Of a stretch of 64,000 nt of DNA, positions 10,015-40,905 are shown piece after piece (position 1 is the first letter of the stretch; every line of letters starts with the position of its first letter). The notes beneath the pieces are model-generated. The model worked only from the letters and a program-made list of their open reading frames with translations, did no database searches and had not been told where the DNA came from. Where the stretch lies: assembly GCA_965197885.1 (NCBI GenBank), contig OZ240231.1:192504-256503 (forward strand), given 5' to 3'. Position numbers and translations under genes: made by a program. The DNA is from Thermodesulfobacteriota bacterium (GTDB lineage Bacteria; Desulfobacterota_D; UBA1144; Nemesobacterales; Nemesobacteraceae).

Positions 10015-11286
10015 TTATCGACATCTTCCACCGGCATGTTCAAAGGCGGTGTTGCAATCGTGAACTCCACGACCCGCATGATCGCAGTCAAGCAGTCTTT
10101 CTTCAGTGCCGTTACAGGCTACATCGTCCAGCAAGAAACTGGTTGGCCCGGTGGTGGTTGTTGATGGCGACATGCTAAGAATAGGCTGCGCCCCTCTTGC
10201 GTCGAACATCTGGTCACACGCGACATCTACATCATAATTCCCCCATTCATCGTCACATATTCCCTTCCATTCCATATCCGTACTGTCATATATTTCAAAT
10301 CTACCTATCTTTTCATTCGCCCCTCCCACTAACCGAAGGTGGCCGTCGAAATAATCAGTATCCTCTTCACTGGGACTGGACCCCAGAGTAACCTCTTCCC
10401 CCGGATGGCTTTGGATCTTTTCTGAATTACCGGCACTATCCATGAAGCTTGCCTTCACCTTGATCTTTTTACCGAAATCTTCACGCCCGATAACATAGGT
10501 GGAATTTGCCGCGCCGGAAATATCGGACTCGTTATTAAGATTGTTAATCAGATGATTAACCCTTACCCACTCATAGCTGAAAGTTACATCCGTCGGAATC
10601 TCGTTGTCGTCCTCTATGTCCGAGACGTCCGCAGTCAGCGTCTGCCCGACCTCGTATTCACCCGTGATTGTCATGAGGCCGGCGGCGGTAGAGTTAGCGC
10701 TGCTGTCTGGAGCGGCACACCTGACGTGAAAATACTCTTGATTGAAGCAAATGTGAACTCCACGTCCTCCATGCCTGCAGTCAAGCAGCTTTCTCTCCGA
10801 ACCCGCGCATTCAAGATCGCTTAGTTCCATCCCCGGCACATTGCGTTGTACGGATGCAGGCGGTGTCCCATGGATGTAGTCATATGTCGTCGTCCCTCCC
10901 AAATAACCTAGCTGACGACATATAACCTCTGCCTCTTCAGTAGCGTACCGGCTATCTTCTATACCATCATCGCATATTCCCTTCCATTCCCCGGTACCGT
11001 CGCCATCCTCATCATCAAATATCTGAGGTCTGCCCGAGTAATCTGTTGAAACAGTGTCAAGTGAGTTTGTTTCCACCAATCGAAGATCGCCATCGCTATC
11101 GTCGGCGCTGGATAGAACTGGACCTCCCAGCAGTAAAAACCCTAGCAGCAGTACCGCCGCCATCGGGCAACCACGCAAGATGTCAAGAATCTTGGCCACC
11201 ACTCCCCCGCGCACACGCAAACGCGTCGCTTCATCATTCATATTTTCAGAACGGATTACCGATTTCCCTAAGCCTGTTTCTAACAT
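10015..11286 (-). CDS. secreted protein with two SRCR (scavenger receptor cysteine-rich)-like domains flanking a central beta-sandwich-like domain (paralog 1)
   Basis: DLRLVE...GRPQIFD...WKGICDDGIED...EAEVICRQLGY...LECAGSERKLLDCRHGGRGVHICF...VRC and HLRLVGG...GRFEIYD...WKGICDDEWG...VACDQM...VACNGTEERLLDCDHAGRGVHDC match the SRCR consensus. Signal peptide MAAVLLLGFLLLGGPVLSSA. Start chosen at the ATG with an AAGGAGG SD (11286). Confidence 0.8.
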   Translation of the reverse strand: MLETGLGKSVIRSENMNDEATRLRVRGGVVAKILDILRGCPMAAVLLLGFLLLGGPVLSSADDSDGDLRLVETNSLDTVSTDYSGRPQIFDDEDGDGTGEWKGICDDGIEDSRYATEEAEVICRQLGYLGGTTTYDYIHGTPPASVQRNVPGMELSDLECAGSERKLLDCRHGGRGVHICFNQEYFHVRCAAPDSSANSTAAGLMTITGEYEVGQTLTADVSDIEDDNEIPTDVTFSYEWVRVNHLINNLNNESDISGAANSTYVIGREDFGKKIKVKASFMDSAGNSEKIQSHPGEEVTLGSSPSEEDTDYFDGHLRLVGGANEKIGRFEIYDSTDMEWKGICDDEWGNYDVDVACDQMFDARGAQPILSMSPSTTTTGPTSFLLDDVACNGTEERLLDCDHAGRGVHDCNTAFEHAGGRCR

Positions 11287-11941
11287 TTTAGAGCCTCCTT
11301 TAAAAACACAACCGATGGCTAGCACTGCCTAGTCACTCCTAGTTTATTCTACTTCCCCACCTTGACCGCTGTCAAGTGGAGAAAGTGTAGGAACCATAAA
11401 TTCAGGCTTCTTGGTCTTGCAGACTGTGGAAGTACCGAGCGTAAAGCAGCAAAAATGTGGATAACGTCTTAAGTTTTTCGCAAATTTAAAAGGGAAGGAA
11501 GACGGCATTCCTTTATAAATCCGGCTAGATAAACAGTGCTCCCCAATTTATTTAACGGGAGGAAACACCGCCATCAGCAATTATACGACGAAGAGCCCCA
11601 AAAAGGTAATTCAGATAAACGAGAAGGAGCCTAGGCTTCACTTAAGCTCCCTTGTGACGGATGCTGAACAATCCTATGGAGGAAATTATCCATGAGATCA
11701 GGAGGCGGCCCCGGGTGGTTGAAGCTTTCCCCGATGGACAGAAAGGAGATAATTGAGGTAAGACAGCAAGATCAGATCAGATTTTTCAGGTTCGGAGACT
11801 CATGAGTCTTTGAACCTGAAACTGAAGAAACGCCAAAAACCCAGATTTGCGAAAAATTCCGAGCGCTGGCCTTTGCTGAGAACAGTTTCAGTGATGTCAT
11901 TTCTCAGTTCTTAGGAGAACCGAAGCGATTTCCCTGAACAT

Positions 11942-32265: not shown

Positions 32266-32276
32266 GAGACGAACTA

Positions 32277-32298
32277 TAAACCATAACGTTATGGTTTA
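32277..32298. promoter_or_regulatory. 22-bp perfect palindrome (TAAACCATAACGTTATGGTTTA), candidate operator 12 nt upstream of the Fic-HTH start codon
   Basis: The reverse complement of taaaccataac is gttatggttta; a perfect dyad was seen directly. Confidence 0.6.
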
Positions 32299-32693
32299 CA
32301 AGTTAGATTGAAATCGAGTAACTTCTGCGCTGTTGACGGGCAGGCTGAGACGGATTGAGGAGCGATATAACAGTCAATTGGGTGAACAGCCCCAGGCGAC
32401 ATACGGTCTCCCACAGTTAGATGGTGACGGTTGGCGCGCTTTTCTCGCGAAATTCAGGCGTGATTTCTTTCCCGGAATAACGAATCGGACCGCTATGATC
32501 TGTTCTTTCGGTATAAACCGGGCCACCAGTCCGGATAGTCTTTGTTTATATCCTCGGTGAAACGTCTCTCCATGTCCCGCTCCCAGTTCACCGAACTCAG
32601 CACCTCGTACGTGCGCGGACTGCTGCTAAAAATGGGTTCCTTTAAAAAATTTCCGTTATCCTGAGAAACTCCTGCTAGGATCTTTCCGTATTT

Positions 32694-34109
32694 TTAAAGC
32701 CCCTGCCGTGCTTGGCCGCTAATCCTGTCTTTTCTGTGTTTTCCAACGGAACGCCTTTTGGACGAGATTGCCAAAAACAGGGCGGATACGACCAAGAACA
32801 AGTTGAATACAGTGCTTTCAGGCGCACCCTCCGCTCCCGCCGCGACAATCGCGCACCCTCCACCGCCATCCTCAACCTCTGATTCCAAGTAAATCCCTGA
32901 ACCAAACACATAAACAGGTGCGTCAGGATCTTCCTTGAGAAGCGGGTTAAGTGTAACGGCTTTTGCGTAGGCAAGCTTGGGCGAAGTGCCGCCAGCACCG
33001 CCGCCGGGGGGATCGTCATTCGAATCCGCCGGATCGTCCCAGTTGTAATTGACAAAGCCTCCAACAAACCCTCCGTGTTCGTCCCGCGTCTTCGCCGCCG
33101 CGATGATCCTCTGAATGGTGTCAACTAAAGTCGGGTCTTGGCTTTGTAGCAAGTTTGTCTGCTCAATCTTTCTGTTGGCACCGTTAAATATAACGTTGCC
33201 CCTCCCATCCATTATATAGATGTAGGTGGAACCATCTCTCCAGGGCCCGCCTTCAGTCCTGAAAAGTTCCCGTAATTGTATGACGTCAATCTCGGGTCGG
33301 CTCAAGGCTTTGAGAAAGAAATGAATTGCCTCTTCTACAAACAGCTTCAGCAGTCCCCGATCTTCTTTCTCTTTCACATTTTTAGCCGAATTGGTAGGGT
33401 TTATCGAAAAACCAATACGGCCGAGTTTTATCTTGCCCTGACTAATGCTAATGGGAGTAGGGTCAACTCCATCCTCCAGGTTGAAACCACCGACCAGAAC
33501 AAATCTTTGCCGCCCGGGCGCGGTTGGATTGGTAAGCGGGATGGATGATAGACCGGCGAATGAAAGCGCGTAACTCACCCTGGGGCTTTGATCGTCTTGC
33601 CCATAATACATAACGGAGTCTCCATCCTCCTCGTCTGCGGCCAGAAAATACTCCCCGACGGGGTTTAGCTTGCCATCTACAAGTCTAGACCAGTCTTGGT
33701 CTTCCAGTTCTCTGTTGGGGTGAACATAGACGCCGCCACCGGGGGGAAGGAATAGGAATGAACAACCAATATCTAGGGCTTCATCCGGTGTACAGGTGGC
33801 GGGACCTGTGAGAAGAATGAGGTATGTGTCTTTATGCTTCCAATATCCTTCCTTCCTGAAATCGTTAAAGATTTCGGTTGCTTGTTCAAGAGTGCTGGTA
33901 ATCCCCAAGTGGTATGCCGCGTCTTTCACGAACTTCTCCAACAGCTCCATTCGCTCTATATTGTCAGCTGCCTCTGCCACGTCCTTCGCCATCGTGCCTT
34001 CATGGGCAACGGCTGTGCGAACACTGGAGAATACACCGGCCAGCGCAAGCGCACAGCAGAAAAGAATCAACGACTTTACAGTTTTTATTATAATATCCTC
34101 CTTTGCCAC
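32694..34109 (-). CDS. secreted tandem Cache/PDC-like domain protein with Gly-rich region and Cys-containing C-terminal hydrophobic tag (paralog A)
   Basis: Signal peptide LILFCCALALAGVFSSVRTAVA; two ...Y..L....GGVYVHPNRELEDQDWS / TYIYIMDGRGNVIFNGANR segments typical of Cache-like ligand-binding folds; DDPPGGGAGGTSPKL; C-terminus GCAIVAAGAEGAPESTVFNLFLVVSALFLAISSKRR. Confidence 0.7.
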   Translation of the reverse strand: MAKEDIIIKTVKSLILFCCALALAGVFSSVRTAVAHEGTMAKDVAEAADNIERMELLEKFVKDAAYHLGITSTLEQATEIFNDFRKEGYWKHKDTYLILLTGPATCTPDEALDIGCSFLFLPPGGGVYVHPNRELEDQDWSRLVDGKLNPVGEYFLAADEEDGDSVMYYGQDDQSPRVSYALSFAGLSSIPLTNPTAPGRQRFVLVGGFNLEDGVDPTPISISQGKIKLGRIGFSINPTNSAKNVKEKEDRGLLKLFVEEAIHFFLKALSRPEIDVIQLRELFRTEGGPWRDGSTYIYIMDGRGNVIFNGANRKIEQTNLLQSQDPTLVDTIQRIIAAAKTRDEHGGFVGGFVNYNWDDPADSNDDPPGGGAGGTSPKLAYAKAVTLNPLLKEDPDAPVYVFGSGIYLESEVEDGGGGCAIVAAGAEGAPESTVFNLFLVVSALFLAISSKRRSVGKHRKDRISGQARQGL

Positions 34110-34577
34110 AAGGCAGATCTTTGTCTATCACGCCCTACACCAGCGTGTTCATTAGCATTGCAATCGAGCATTCCGGATTTCCGTAGGCTTGTTTCTAACA
34201 TTTCGAAAAACTCTCTAAAAAAAAGGCTGCCTGCCCATATTAGCACTATCCGGTTGCTTCTAATCTTCAATTTAACTGTACTTCCTAGTCCTATCTGCTG
34301 TCAAGGAGAATAAGTGGCATTTGCGATGTAGCGATTTTGATTTCTGGTTTCCGGTACGCTTTATGAAGTTTTGATTTAGAGGAAAATTTAAGAATCGAGT
34401 TTAATAAAAATTCACGGGTCGTTCGACCGAATGACCCGTGTTTCTATTTAAACCTTAATTTCGCTGAAAAAAAACTGAAGGAATGGTGCTGGAAGTTCGT
34501 GCCCAAGAGCACCAGTACTGGATCAGACAACCATCACGGCAGACCCAATCATAACACTATGGAGGTATTGCTTTATC

Positions 34578-34718
34578 ATGAACAATGATAAGACACTATT
34601 TTCTGCAGGTGTTGACTGGGGGCGAGGGTCCCACCAAGTCTGCGTTATCGATCAGGAAGGTTCCGTCATTGGAGAAGAATCCTTCAAGCACACCGGAAAT
34701 GCCGTATTGCCAAGTTGA
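34578..34718 (+). mobile_element. IS110-family transposase 5' remnant (46-codon N-terminal fragment only)
   Basis: MNNDKTLFSAGVDWGRGSHQVCVIDQEGSVIGEESFKHTGNAVLPS* matches the conserved N-terminus of IS110-family DEDD transposases (GVDWAxxxHxVxxxDxxG...). It stops after 46 codons and no catalytic core follows. Confidence 0.65.
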
Positions 34719-34780
34719 ATCCGGACTTTTCCATACGATAAGTCCTTGCCCGGGAACAGGGTATACCGAGTTGGGTACCC

Positions 34781-36037
34781 CTAGTTCGAACATCTGACTT
34801 TAGCATACTCCGGTCTCCATGAGCTACAATCGTGCACCCCACGGGTTCCATGCTCACAATCAAGCAGTTCATCTTCACCCCCATCGCATACCACCTCGTC
34901 AAGCAAGAAAGTTCTGGGTGCACTAATTCCTGATGAGTGTAGGGTTGGAGACGGGGTGTTTCCCGAGAAGCCTAACTGACTACACACGACCCCTGCCTCT
35001 TCTGACCCCCATCCGCTGTTAGCACATACCGACTCCCATCCTGTACCATCGCCATCGTCGGTTTTGCCATCGAATATTTCAACTCTGCCTTCAAGCTCAT
35101 TAACTCCTGCCGCCAGTCGAATCCGGCCGTCGTAGTTCGCAGCATCAGCAGCACTAACAGGGCCCGTTACCCGGCTTCGTACCTCTTCTTTATTTCCGGT
35201 GGGGGTAGCTTCATCGGTGAAACTCAGTTCAAGCTTGATACTTTTACCGAAATCCGCATCTGCAAGAACATAAGTGGAACTTGTCCCCCCGGAAATCTCA
35301 GTCTCGTTATCATCAGTATTAAGTCGGGTATTAACCCTGACCCACTGATAACTGAAGGTTGACGTCGCCGGAAGACCGTCGTCGTCCTCTATGTCCGAGA
35401 CGTCGGCGGTCAGAGTCTGCCCCACCTCCAGAGTGCCCGTGATTCCCAGCAGACCTTTGGCGGTGGAACTGGCACCTGACTCACAAGCAACTGTGAATAT
35501 CTCTCCATTGTAGCAATTATGCTTATCACGTCCTCCGTGCTCACAATCAAACACTCTTTTTTCCGAACCCGTGCACAGCAGATTGTCTATTACCATGTCG
35601 GGAAAATTCGCTGACACGCCTGAATCATAGGAAACGTCGTGAGTTATCTCTCCTCCCGAACACCCTAGCTGGCGGCATATTACGGCTGCTTCTTCTTTAG
35701 ACACATCATGTGAAAGTAAGCCATCATCACATATCCCCCTCCACGTGCCGTTCCCGTCATTATCCGGCTCATTGAATATCTCCGTCCTGCCCTCTCCTGA
35801 GCAAGCTGCTGTTCCTGTCACAACCGTGCCCGTCGCATCTAGTCTCCTTAATCGAAGGTCGCCGTCGGACTGCGCATTTACCTCCGCAGAACCTCCCAGC
35901 AGCAAAAACAGCAGTGACGCTACCAAGAGGGGTTTGCTCAAGAAATCCAAGGCTTTTATGATCCCCGTCCCGTGCGAGCAAACCACGCTGTTACTGTTAA
36001 AAAGCCTTCCAGGTTTCGTTAAGTATTTTTCCATCAT
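34781..36037 (-). CDS. secreted tandem-SRCR-like domain protein (paralog 2)
   Basis: Same architecture as paralog 1: DGDLRLRRLDATGTVVTG...GRTEIFN...WRGICDDGLLSHDVSKEEAAVICRQLGCSGG...LLCTGSEKRVFDCEHGGRDKHNC; central ITGTLEVGQTLTADVSDIEDDDGLPA domain; second SRCR ...WESVCANSGWGSEEAGVVCSQLG...VVCDGGEDELLDCEHGTRGVHDC. GAAGGAGG SD upstream of the ATG at 36037. Confidence 0.8.
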   Translation of the reverse strand: MMEKYLTKPGRLFNSNSVVCSHGTGIIKALDFLSKPLLVASLLFLLLGGSAEVNAQSDGDLRLRRLDATGTVVTGTAACSGEGRTEIFNEPDNDGNGTWRGICDDGLLSHDVSKEEAAVICRQLGCSGGEITHDVSYDSGVSANFPDMVIDNLLCTGSEKRVFDCEHGGRDKHNCYNGEIFTVACESGASSTAKGLLGITGTLEVGQTLTADVSDIEDDDGLPATSTFSYQWVRVNTRLNTDDNETEISGGTSSTYVLADADFGKSIKLELSFTDEATPTGNKEEVRSRVTGPVSAADAANYDGRIRLAAGVNELEGRVEIFDGKTDDGDGTGWESVCANSGWGSEEAGVVCSQLGFSGNTPSPTLHSSGISAPRTFLLDEVVCDGGEDELLDCEHGTRGVHDCSSWRPEYAKVRCSN

Positions 36038-36576
36038 CCTCAGAACCTCCTTCTGAACTTTTCTGTGTCCTAGGTCTAACCGCTTGGTCTAGATATAACC
36101 ATTCCACCCTATATTGTATATGTAAATTTAGCCCCGTCAATTTTTTCTTGGCGGCTTGATATTCAGGTGTTCTCTGTCGGTCCCCGTTCCACTAAAAATC
36201 TTCACGCATGCCACGTTAGGGCTTAGTTCCAGGCCGCACTCCGGATCTTTGCATGGGGTGTTCATCTCGACACTCCTTTGACACACATCTCCCCGGGAGA
36301 CACTTAAAGATGGCGGACCAACCGAGGCATTCGTTGATCAAATGGACAGTAACTTTAACTCAAATCAATTTTGCGCTGAGTAAAAGCCCTTAGGAAGGTA
36401 GAGGATTATAATCAGTTGAGAACCACGGGAAATAGCGGGGAATTGTGTACACAGCCAGTCACCCTCGTAGCGCGTAATTCCTGAGATGTCTCAACCTTAA
36501 TTCGGGAAGGTCACTTGTCTTCAAGATGTGCTTGCCCCTGACAATTGAGCATTCGGGTCGTGGAATGAGTGATTGC

Positions 36577-36620
36577 TTTTGTACCGAACATTCGGTTATA
36601 TTGTACCGAACATTCGGTTA
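36577..36620. promoter_or_regulatory. two tandem 22-bp direct repeats each containing the dyad ACCGAAcaTTCGGT; candidate operator upstream of Cache-like paralog B
   Basis: ttttgtaccgaacattcggtta (36577-36598) and tattgtaccgaacattcggtta (36599-36620), 49 nt before the ATG at 36669. Confidence 0.65.
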
Positions 36621-36668
36621 CAAGGTGTAACTGGACAAGGGCTTATCGTATATGAAGGAGAATGTGTC

Positions 36669-37991
36669 ATGAAAAATTTAAAGTCATCGTTTTTTTTCCG
36701 GTTTTGCTGTGTGCTTGTGCTGGCAAGCGTTTTTTTCGGTACGCGTCCCGCCGTTGCCCATGAAGGTACGACGGACGCCGCGACGGCGGAGGACGTGGCG
36801 AAGGCGACCGCCGATATGAAGCGGGATGTTCTGAGCGAATTCGTGGAACACGCGGCAGAGCACTTCGAGGGTGCCCAAAGCTTCGAACAGGCGGCCCAGC
36901 TCTTTGATGGGTTTCGGAACGAGAGAAGTTGGAATTATGAAGGTGTATACATCGTCCTTCTTACTGCTCGTGGCGGCGTGTACGTCCACCCCAACAGGGA
37001 GCTTGAGGATCAGGACTGGTCTGCCCTTCCGGATGAGGAGGGAAAAAACGTCGGGAAGCAGTTTCTGGCCGCAGGCGAGGATGGAGACTTCGTTATGTAT
37101 TATGGGCAAGACGATCAAAGCCCCAGAGTGAGTTACGTGCGACCGGTTGTCAATCCGTCTGTTCCGCTTAGCAACCCGAGCGCACCTGACCGGCAGAAAT
37201 TTATTCTGCTCGGCGGCTTCGATCAGGAGCACGGATTTCCGGATCCTCCCTACGATCCCGAGCAGGGTATAAAACTTCACGGTCAAGATTTCCCTGCACT
37301 TCCTGGAGTACAGGCTAAAGATGTGACGGAAGAAGGCGATCCGGAACGGAGAGAAGAGGAGCTGAGACAGTTTGTACGCGATGCGATTCACTTCTTTCTG
37401 ACAGCCTTGGATGGAGGTGAAGTTGACGTCATACAGTTGCGCAGACTCTTCAGGCTGGACGACGGGCCCTGGAGGCATCGCTCCACCTATATATATATCA
37501 TGGATGAAAGGGGCAACGTGATATTTAACGGGGCCAACAGAGGTATTGAGCAGACAAACTTGTGGGATTTTACTCCTCCTGACAGTGACGATACATTTAT
37601 TCAGAGGATCATAGCCGCGGCGGAGATGCCCGGCGGAGGCTTTATCAATTACAACTGGAACGATCCGGAGGATCCGAATGATGATCCTCCCGGTGGCGGT
37701 GCTGGCGGTACTTCGCCCAAGCTTGGTTTTGCCGAAGCCGTTTCACTTGACAGGCACGATCATTTGTCTCCCGTCTACGTGTTTGGTTCAGGGATTTATT
37801 TGGGGTCGCAGGATGATGATATGGAACTGCAGGGTGACGATGATGACGGAGCGTGTGCGATTGCGGGAGCGGGGAATACGCTTGAAAGCACCGCATTCAA
37901 TTTCTTCCTGCTTGTATCCGCCCTGTTTTTGGCAGTTTCGTTTAAAAGACATTTAACTGGAAGACGGAAGGAGCAACGCCAAAATCTGTAG
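36669..37991 (+). CDS. secreted tandem Cache/PDC-like domain protein with Cys-containing C-terminal tag (paralog B)
   Basis: Start at MKNLKSSFFFRFCCVLVLASVFFGTRPAVA with an AAGGAG SD; strongly similar throughout to paralog A (GGVYVHPNRELEDQDWS, MYYGQDDQSPRVSY, DDPPGGGAGGTSPKL). C-terminus GACAIAGAGNTLESTAFNFFLLVSALFLAVSFKRH. Confidence 0.7.
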   Translation: MKNLKSSFFFRFCCVLVLASVFFGTRPAVAHEGTTDAATAEDVAKATADMKRDVLSEFVEHAAEHFEGAQSFEQAAQLFDGFRNERSWNYEGVYIVLLTARGGVYVHPNRELEDQDWSALPDEEGKNVGKQFLAAGEDGDFVMYYGQDDQSPRVSYVRPVVNPSVPLSNPSAPDRQKFILLGGFDQEHGFPDPPYDPEQGIKLHGQDFPALPGVQAKDVTEEGDPERREEELRQFVRDAIHFFLTALDGGEVDVIQLRRLFRLDDGPWRHRSTYIYIMDERGNVIFNGANRGIEQTNLWDFTPPDSDDTFIQRIIAAAEMPGGGFINYNWNDPEDPNDDPPGGGAGGTSPKLGFAEAVSLDRHDHLSPVYVFGSGIYLGSQDDDMELQGDDDDGACAIAGAGNTLESTAFNFFLLVSALFLAVSFKRHLTGRRKEQRQNL

Positions 37992-38572
37992 AGTCGAAGA
38001 GAAGCGGACCCTTGAGAGGAGAGTGCGCCAATAAGGGCCGAGCACGGCGCGGACAGAGAAGTCGTATTCCGTCAGGGAAGAGAAGCGGGCCGGAAGGAAT
38101 CTCGGACTTCATCGACGCTAATGCGCTTTGGGTTACGATTACCGCAAGGCTTTCGGTCACAAGTTCTAACACTTCACAGGATTCCCCAGTCGGGTTTTAC
38201 TTACGTGGCGTGCTCAGAAGTGGCTGTGCGGGTGCTACATAAAGATGGCGGCTTCGGGCAAGAGCGCCAAGGGTGATAACGGTGGCCATCGCCAGGGAGC
38301 TTGTGCGGGTTTCATCCGGGACATAATCCGCCGCGAGATGGGCACAATAAAGGGGTCGACGGCGTAGGGAGAAGAACGCAAACAGAATAATCGTGTCAGG
38401 ACGAGGCGCGAGAGCGGAGAATCTCTGTTCTCAGTCTACGGGCACCTCGTTGACCCGTGCTATTGAGTCAAAGGTCAGTTCTGCGACTTAAGTGGACCCA
38501 AGCGACACCCGATCCGGTACCTTTATCAAAAGCCTGAATCAAGCGAAAAAATTAAAAATCAAGTTTAATTTT

Positions 38573-38690
38573 TTCACGGGTATCGACTGGGGACGAGAAT
38601 CCCACCGGATCTGCCATTGGAGAAAAATCCTTCAAGCACACCGGAAGTGCCGTATTGCTAAGTCAAATCCGGACCTTTCTATACGATAAG
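38573..38690 (+). mobile_element. second, more degraded copy of the IS110-family 5' remnant
   Basis: ...TGIDWGRESHRIC then frame lost; DNA aligns with 34600-34720 except for a roughly 22-nt deletion (gttatcgatcaggaaggttccgt) and a roughly 150-bp deletion upstream. Confidence 0.6.
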
Positions 38691-38729
38691 GTTCTTGCCC
38701 GGGAACAGGGCATACCGAGTTGAGTCCCC

Positions 38730-40448
38730 TTAGCTCCCTCCAGGCGAACATGTGACTTTAGCATAGTCCGGGTTCCATGAGCTGCAATCGTGCTCTCCAC
38801 GGGTTCCATGGTCACAATCAAGCAGTTCATCTTCATCCCCATCGCAGTCCACGGAGTCAAGCAAGAAAGTCCTGGGTGGACTAATGCTTGATAAGCTTAT
38901 GCCTTCTGCAGACGAGGTATTCCCCGATGCGCCTAACTGACGACACACGACCCCCGCCTCTTCCGATCCCCATCCGCTGTTAGCACATACTGACTCCCAT
39001 CCCGTACCATCGCCATCGTCGGTTTTGCCATCGAATATTTCAACTACGCCTCTAAGCTCATTATCTCCCGCCGCCAGTCGAATAGAACCGTCGTACTCCG
39101 CGGCATCAGCAGCACTGACAGTAACGGGGCCCATTACCCGACTTCGTACATCTTCTTCATTTCCGTCGTCATCGGCGAAACTCAGTTCAAGCTTGATACT
39201 TTTACCGAAATCCGCATTCTGAAGAACATAGGTGGAATTTACCGCATCGGAAATATCGGACTCGTTATCAGGAGTATCAAGCCGGGTATTAACCCTGACC
39301 CACTGGTAACTGAAGGTTGACTCCGCCGGAAGACCGTCTTTATCATCTATGTCCGAGACGTCAGCGGTCAGAGTCTGCCCCACCTCCGAAGTGCCCGTGA
39401 TTTTCAGCAGACCGGAGGCGGTGGAGTTGTCACCTGGAGGATCACAAGAGACTGTGAATATCTCTTTCTTGAAGCAATTATGATTTCCACGGCCTGCATG
39501 CTCACAATCAAGCACACTGTTTTCCGAACCCGTGCATACCAGATTGTCTATTAACATGTCGGGGAAATTCGCTATCACGCCTGAACCATAGAAAACGTCG
39601 TGAGTTATACTTCCTCCCGAACATCCCAGCCGGCGACATATTACGGCTGCCTCTTCTTTAGACACATCGTTTGAAGTTAAGCCATCATCACATATCCCCC
39701 TCCAATTGCCGGTCCCGTCATCGTCCGGATCATTGAATATCTCCGGCCTGCCCGAATCTGAGCAAATCGAGTCGCCTGTCAAAACCGTGCCGTCCGCATC
39801 TAGTTCCGTTAACCTGAGGTCGCCGTCTTTGTTGGAGTTTATAGGAGATGAAGGACCGGTTATACGAACTACGGCATTTTCGTGATGGGTAGTCCAACCG
39901 GCGTTCGTTCCGTCCCACGCATAAATACCCTCGACAAACCTATCCCGATCGCGGAGATTAAAAGTCTGATGCTCGGTATAACCAGAATCAGTATCATTCT
40001 GAGTCCCCGTATGCACATCATATCTGTCTAAGGGTTCCCCCTCCGGCGGAAAATCCGGCTTTATCCAAATTTTAAAACTGCCGGCGTTCACTCCACCCGA
40101 ACTAATAATTGCAATTTCGTAAGTATTATTTCCAAACTCAAAGAACCTGTCATCATTTGACGAGAAGGCCCCATTGGGAGCAGCACTAGTGCCATAGTGA
40201 GTTGTGGTCTCGGCTCCCTGACCTTGATCCACCTGAAATTCCAGCCGAGCAAGTTCCGTGTCCCCCGCCCATAAATCGCCGACGCTCAATAATGAGAATG
40301 CTAAGAAAACGGCCAGAATACCCGCGCTGCGGAGCACGGAAGGAACTTGCCGCCTCCGGGAAGCGGTTTCCCCGTTCCTCTTATTCCGAGATACTTGAAG
40401 ATTTATACCCTGAAAGCAATTTACATTCCCTGCACTTGGTTTACTCAT
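38730..40448 (-). CDS. secreted tandem-SRCR-like domain protein with additional about 170-aa N-terminal domain (paralog 3)
   Basis: C-terminal 400 aa collinear with paralog 2 (DGDLRLTELDADGTVLTG...WRGICDDGLTSNDVSKEEAAVICRRLGCSGG...; ITGTSEVGQTLTADVSDIDDKDGLPA; WESVCANSGWGSEEAGVVCRQLG). AGGAGGA SD upstream of the ATG at 40448. Confidence 0.8.
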   Translation of the reverse strand: MSKPSAGNVNCFQGINLQVSRNKRNGETASRRRQVPSVLRSAGILAVFLAFSLLSVGDLWAGDTELARLEFQVDQGQGAETTTHYGTSAAPNGAFSSNDDRFFEFGNNTYEIAIISSGGVNAGSFKIWIKPDFPPEGEPLDRYDVHTGTQNDTDSGYTEHQTFNLRDRDRFVEGIYAWDGTNAGWTTHHENAVVRITGPSSPINSNKDGDLRLTELDADGTVLTGDSICSDSGRPEIFNDPDDDGTGNWRGICDDGLTSNDVSKEEAAVICRRLGCSGGSITHDVFYGSGVIANFPDMLIDNLVCTGSENSVLDCEHAGRGNHNCFKKEIFTVSCDPPGDNSTASGLLKITGTSEVGQTLTADVSDIDDKDGLPAESTFSYQWVRVNTRLDTPDNESDISDAVNSTYVLQNADFGKSIKLELSFADDDGNEEDVRSRVMGPVTVSAADAAEYDGSIRLAAGDNELRGVVEIFDGKTDDGDGTGWESVCANSGWGSEEAGVVCRQLGASGNTSSAEGISLSSISPPRTFLLDSVDCDGDEDELLDCDHGTRGEHDCSSWNPDYAKVTCSPGGS

Positions 40449-40905
40449 CGTATTGTCCTCCTGCGTGCAATAAGGTATTAACAGTCGGCCCTAGAAAGAA
40501 CCGTTCGGTATAGTACCTCGATATCCCTACATCGTCAAGCAGGTGTCCCGGTGCCGAAGACTGCACTCCGCGCGGGCCCACCGAACCCGCACCTGGCGCT
40601 ATGGTATGCGCGACGGGAAAAACCTAGCCGTCGTTGCTTCCGCTTAAGACATCGGGGAAGTGTCCCGACGCCCGGGCCCTGCTGCCATAGGATTCCCCGG
40701 TCGGGGTTTACTTGCGTGGCGGTGATGACTGGAAGAAAACGCCGGTCGGCATTCCCGGGGAATGTGGTACCCACAGCTTTTCGAACTTTCATAAAGGCGA
40801 AGACGAAGACGTGACTTGAAGTTGGGGGAACTTGTGCTCTCACTATGCGATGTGGAGAGAGTGCGGGGTTGAATCCATGTTGCTTCCCGCTATATTGATC
40901 AGATA

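Follow-up and report, generated by a model that had tools for sequence, protein, structure and literature searches.

A clade-specific genomic island of Dadabacteria holds a second locus of a conserved SRCR/Cache gene pair with a possible role in host interaction

Dadabacteria carry a conserved gene pair, in which one gene encodes an exported protein with two SRCR domains around a bacterial Ig-like domain and the other an exported tandem Cache protein. In the stretch of contig OZ240231.1 analysed here (64,000 nucleotides, hereafter the window), an accessory island of ~8.6 kb (32297–40867) constitutes a clade-specific second locus of this pair, which is common to the window and three related assemblies. 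We infer, with a probability of about 0.5, that in sponge-associated Dadabacteria the pair is tethered to the cell surface and acts there as a host-interaction module. This lineage is common in marine sponges, and the genome to which the window belongs is small.

The extent of the island was set by comparison with relatives that have an empty site. In L030 and L031 homology to the window breaks off at 32296 and restarts at 40868, and hisA-Fic is separated from EVE by 131 nt; these ends almost exactly coincide with the accessory island of the original prediction (32266–40905). The island is present at the same site and in the same layout in L001, L002 and L028. Its gene order and strands are also those that had been predicted: CacheA (32694–34109, minus strand), SRCR2 (34781–36037, minus), CacheB (36669–37991, plus) and SRCR3 (38730–40448, minus). 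A solitary third paralog, SRCR1 (10015–11325, minus; 436 aa), lies outside the island, shares 46% identity with SRCR2 and has no adjoining Cache gene. The non-coding stretch at 37992–38512 is conserved (90–93% identity in L002 and L028) and contains a 36-nt motif that recurs at 40686–40721; it gave no Rfam match, no excess of fold energy and no covariation. The right non-coding end (40449–40867) includes a promoter-like site for SRCR3 (40538–40510) and a GC-rich insert (40549–40756) that is missing in L028. As to the surroundings, the neighbouring Fic gene is similar to the defence protein SoFic (7e-30); since relatives without the island have it too, it does not belong to the island's cargo. 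The island is flanked by IS elements and lies at an insertion hotspot, where L032 has a different 569-aa gene; the window also encodes a giant fn3/cadherin adhesin.

At a conserved ispE...uvrD locus, 12 other Dadabacteria genomes have the SRCR-Ig-SRCR gene and, 12–102 bp behind it in the same orientation, a tandem-sCache_2 gene; consecutive NCBI accessions point to this arrangement in 7 further MAG records. As both families are found side by side at these 12 loci, the adjacency that had been noticed in the island is not coincidental, and the short spacer persists among genomes whose SRCR proteins are just 37–47% identical. Relative to the canonical SRCR-then-Cache order, CacheB is inverted. 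The partnership is not obligatory, since ~11 genomes have SRCR at the canonical locus with Cache absent and SRCR1 stands alone.

The SRCR fold was confirmed by Pfam profile search, with two matches per SRCR protein (E = 1.6e-29 and, for SRCR3, 3.9e-29; 101–103 bits vs a cut-off of 26.1). SRCR2 (418 aa) is composed of an N-terminal signal/anchor, SRCR domain 1 (8 Cys), an Ig-like beta-sandwich that gave only sub-threshold matches (ZirU and IG_AIR9) and SRCR domain 2 (6 Cys). SRCR3 (572 aa; identical to P0011) has the same architecture with an extra N-terminal segment of ~150 aa without family match, and the two proteins are unrelated only in this segment and in the signal/leader region. With its long N-region, the SRCR signal peptide might escape cleavage and serve as an anchor. 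Both 6-Cys and 8-Cys domain versions occur in the family, the extra Cys pair being gained or lost as a unit. The metazoan SRCR superfamily (CD163, DMBT1/SALSA, M2BP, MARCO, SCARA5 and the sponge SRCR receptors) belongs to the same HMM family, with the same cysteine pattern and predicted fold, and the closest structural matches of the SRCR domains are domains of CD163. Unlike metazoan proteins, however, the island SRCR genes are bacterial: their products start with a bacterial-type signal peptide, carry an Ig-like domain of bacterial type between the SRCR domains and have an operon-like pairing with a Cache protein; no animal protein exceeds ~30% full-length identity, thus there is no sign of recent host transfer. 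In domain 1, C-D-D, I-D-N and E179 are invariant across the family and align with the equivalent residues of SRCR2/3, the Ca2+-dependent ligand-binding domains of CD163. The retained residues, aligned with acidic Ca2+-site positions, form a putative ligand site; in domain 2 of SRCR2/3 the C-D-D motif has been lost (C-A-N-S).

The Cache fold is likewise supported by Pfam, as sCache_2/dCache_2 exceed the cut-off in CacheA (dCache_2 2.5e-11, sCache_2 3.8e-8) and in CacheB, and both proteins are, as proposed, exported, built of tandem Cache modules and devoid of a transmitter domain. In CacheA (471 aa) the signal peptide precedes two sCache_2-like modules, and the C-terminus has GGCAI followed by a hydrophobic and basic tail, while CacheB has 440 aa from the ATG of the public record, with an alternative ORF start at 36573 (TTG). 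Compared with sCache_2 domains of chemoreceptors and kinases (PDB 4K08, 2QHK/4EXO, TlpB), the island proteins have two tandem modules instead of one, lack a transmitter, are C-terminally anchored rather than embedded between two receptor helices and have an invariant histidine at the predicted mature N-terminus, which directly follows an AxA-type site in 30/30 sequences of the family alignment. Their C-terminal signal is tripartite: an invariant Gly-Gly-Cys motif (D-D-G-G-C-A-I/L-x-G, with C396 invariant) ~12 residues upstream of a hydrophobic helix, the helix itself and basic residues. A motif scan located this type of tail also on unrelated ORFs at other loci. MYXO-CTERM-type signals are likewise built of a short invariant-Cys motif and a hydrophobic helix, with a cluster of basic residues at the very C-terminus; in Myxococcus, a polymorphic recognition receptor is cleaved and anchored to the surface by way of such Cys-containing tripartite signals (PMC11980579; Haft preprint). 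The known ones come from Myxococcota/Bradymonadales, Synergistetes and Thermococcales, not from Dadabacteria, and no NCBIfam sorting-signal model fits the island motif.

Both proteins might instead be periplasmic and tethered to the inner membrane, where the Cache protein would bind a small molecule and hand it on, or signal its presence, to a transporter or sensor encoded elsewhere, with the SRCR protein as accessory binding partner. Dadabacteria are diderm; no secretion system, sortase or outer-membrane export route was identified, and both proteins could remain in the periplasm. The nearest structures to the Cache proteins are small-molecule sensor domains that bind acetate, pyruvate or urea, and the C-terminal helix might be a plain membrane anchor. 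Still, periplasmic sensing appears unlikely: no kinase, chemoreceptor, cyclase or transporter gene adjoins the pair at any of ~30 loci, the cytoplasmic tail has merely 6–25 basic residues, the invariant Cys before the helix better suits a processed sorting signal, and the variability described below is unusual for periplasmic sensors. It is quite improbable that the pair captures metal or nutrients, through a histidine-brace-type site in Cache and binding of a host (glyco)protein by SRCR, as CD163 binds haptoglobin-haemoglobin. The histidine after the predicted signal cleavage site, the invariant H65, H107 and D114 and the CD163 matches would fit such a role, but any clustering of the histidines is putative, residues 18–34 of the Cache model being at pLDDT below 50, the CD163 matches stem from its nine SRCR repeats and denote no specific relationship, and genes for a TonB receptor, an ABC importer or a metallochaperone are not found next to the pair.

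The history of the island involves an IS110 element, two remnants of which had been correctly recognised. Remnant 1 (34390–34715, plus) comprises part of the left non-coding end and the first ~40 codons, and faces the 3′ end of SRCR2. Its ORF (34578–34715, 46 codons) matches PF01548 exactly at the cut-off (E 1e-6, 29 bits); residues 1–40 are 82.5% identical to the intact 416-aa IS110 transposase of locus L005, and window positions 34491–34696 share 88% nucleotide identity with that element, 5′ UTR included. Remnant 2 (38513–38663, plus) derives from the same element and is broken by internal deletions. With the intact element of this other Dadabacteria genome they share the DEDD motif of the transposase N-terminus and the non-coding end upstream of it; no more than ~330 nt (copy 1) and ~150 nt (copy 2) remain, so that the remnants are immobile relics. 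The duplication of an SRCR gene together with its remnant also holds: 34659–35866 (most of SRCR2 and the downstream remnant, with weaker similarity to ~34608) matches 38607–39827 (most of SRCR3 and its remnant) at BLAST E = 0. Over these ~1.2 kb identity is 83% counting gaps and 81–88% across ungapped blocks. The 3′ ends and remnants, described before as near-identical, have 73–90% identity per 60-nt window, and the supposed divergence of the 5′ two-thirds was not found, as identity stays at 0.77–0.95 as far as 35866 without a 3′ gradient. Since similarity is not confined to the 3′ end, the pattern offered for 3′-end gene conversion does not exist, and this explanation is not supported. The CacheA/CacheB split (dS 0.80) is much older than that of the SRCR paralogs (dS 0.25), therefore the recently duplicated or homogenised unit is the SRCR gene with its remnant, not the whole SRCR and Cache cassette. 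This duplication preceded the split of the window genome from L002 (55 informative sites orthologous vs 8+8 other). In the window lineage, then, the pair was copied; IS110 entered behind the SRCR gene, split the pair and decayed to its first ~40 codons, after which SRCR gene and remnant were duplicated, and one Cache gene is now inverted.

Both families change in amino acids, relative to silent sites, 3–10x as much as neighbouring housekeeping genes. Between the window and L002, dN/dS is 0.56 for SRCR2, 0.69 for SRCR3, 0.48 for CacheB and 0.88 for CacheA vs 0.05–0.22 for six flanking genes, and the trend is the same against L001; the extra N-terminal segment of SRCR3 reaches 1.3 (vs L002), and with all other values below 1 the ratios suit relaxed constraint and positive selection alike. 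Hypervariable segments of SRCR2 (residues 107–116, 127–146 and 357–376) adjoin conserved cores. Gene conversion does occur, but affects the central Ig-like domain and dispersed patches: the central domain of SRCR3 in L028 is of SRCR2-type sequence (a run of 13 paralog-type sites), and mosaic alleles occur in metagenomes. Such rapid evolution and recombination might also mark decoys or receptors for phage or other bacteria within a defence and variability hotspot, a reading to which the insertion site, the SoFic-like neighbour and the flanking IS elements would lend themselves; it is nevertheless a poor candidate, because PADLOC gives no match for either protein family, the pair has its primary copy among housekeeping genes in the stable ispE...uvrD context and Fic does not belong to the island. 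That the pair has no joint function, being hitch-hiking or decaying duplicated DNA, would accord with the frameshifted CacheA of L002, the split CacheB of L028 and the SRCR fragments in both, which suggest that some copies are decaying, with dN/dS up to 0.9 and with SRCR genes lacking Cache in several genomes, but is improbable given that all four window genes and their L001 orthologs are intact ORFs, that short-spacer adjacency outlasts SRCR divergence and that cysteines, acidic-site residues and Cache core motifs stay invariant.

Fast evolution and recombination of both families are, on the other hand, what one would expect of host-facing surface molecules, which returns us to the host-interaction module. 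The role in extracellular binding or recognition that had been proposed, possibly in host attachment, would follow indirectly from the export signals, the Cys-containing sorting-type tail, the acidic-site residues kept in SRCR, the raised dN/dS and the confinement to Dadabacteria MAGs. All strong genome matches (26/26) were Dadabacteria-type MAGs, several with names apparently referring to sponge studies; Dadabacteria MAGs have been recovered from sponges, and the window genome is probably of sponge origin as well. The eukaryotic-like proteins of sponge symbionts (ankyrin, LRR, TPR, fibronectin-III, cadherin), for which modulation of host recognition is the usual proposed role, offer a parallel, being likewise eukaryote-typical extracellular domains in a sponge-recovered lineage; SRCR is not among the surveyed repeat classes, and the island SRCR has a fixed partner gene. 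Neither SRCR nor Cache is mentioned by Robbins et al. (2021), and a literature search for Dadabacteria and SRCR found no paper, nor was any found that describes the SRCR/Cache module. In the proposed mechanism, the Cache protein would be cleaved and, anchored by a lipid at its Cys, exposed at the cell surface like MYXO-CTERM proteins, where it would hold or cooperate with the SRCR protein, whose domain 1 may bind a ligand of the host or matrix, anionic or basic, via the retained Ca2+-type acidic site. Sponge genomes contain SRCR genes in hundreds, and the host's own recognition repertoire would be rich in SRCR proteins. Pressure from the host would drive the hypervariability of the SRCR loops, and the two proteins together may serve in attachment to, or recognition or evasion by, the sponge host.

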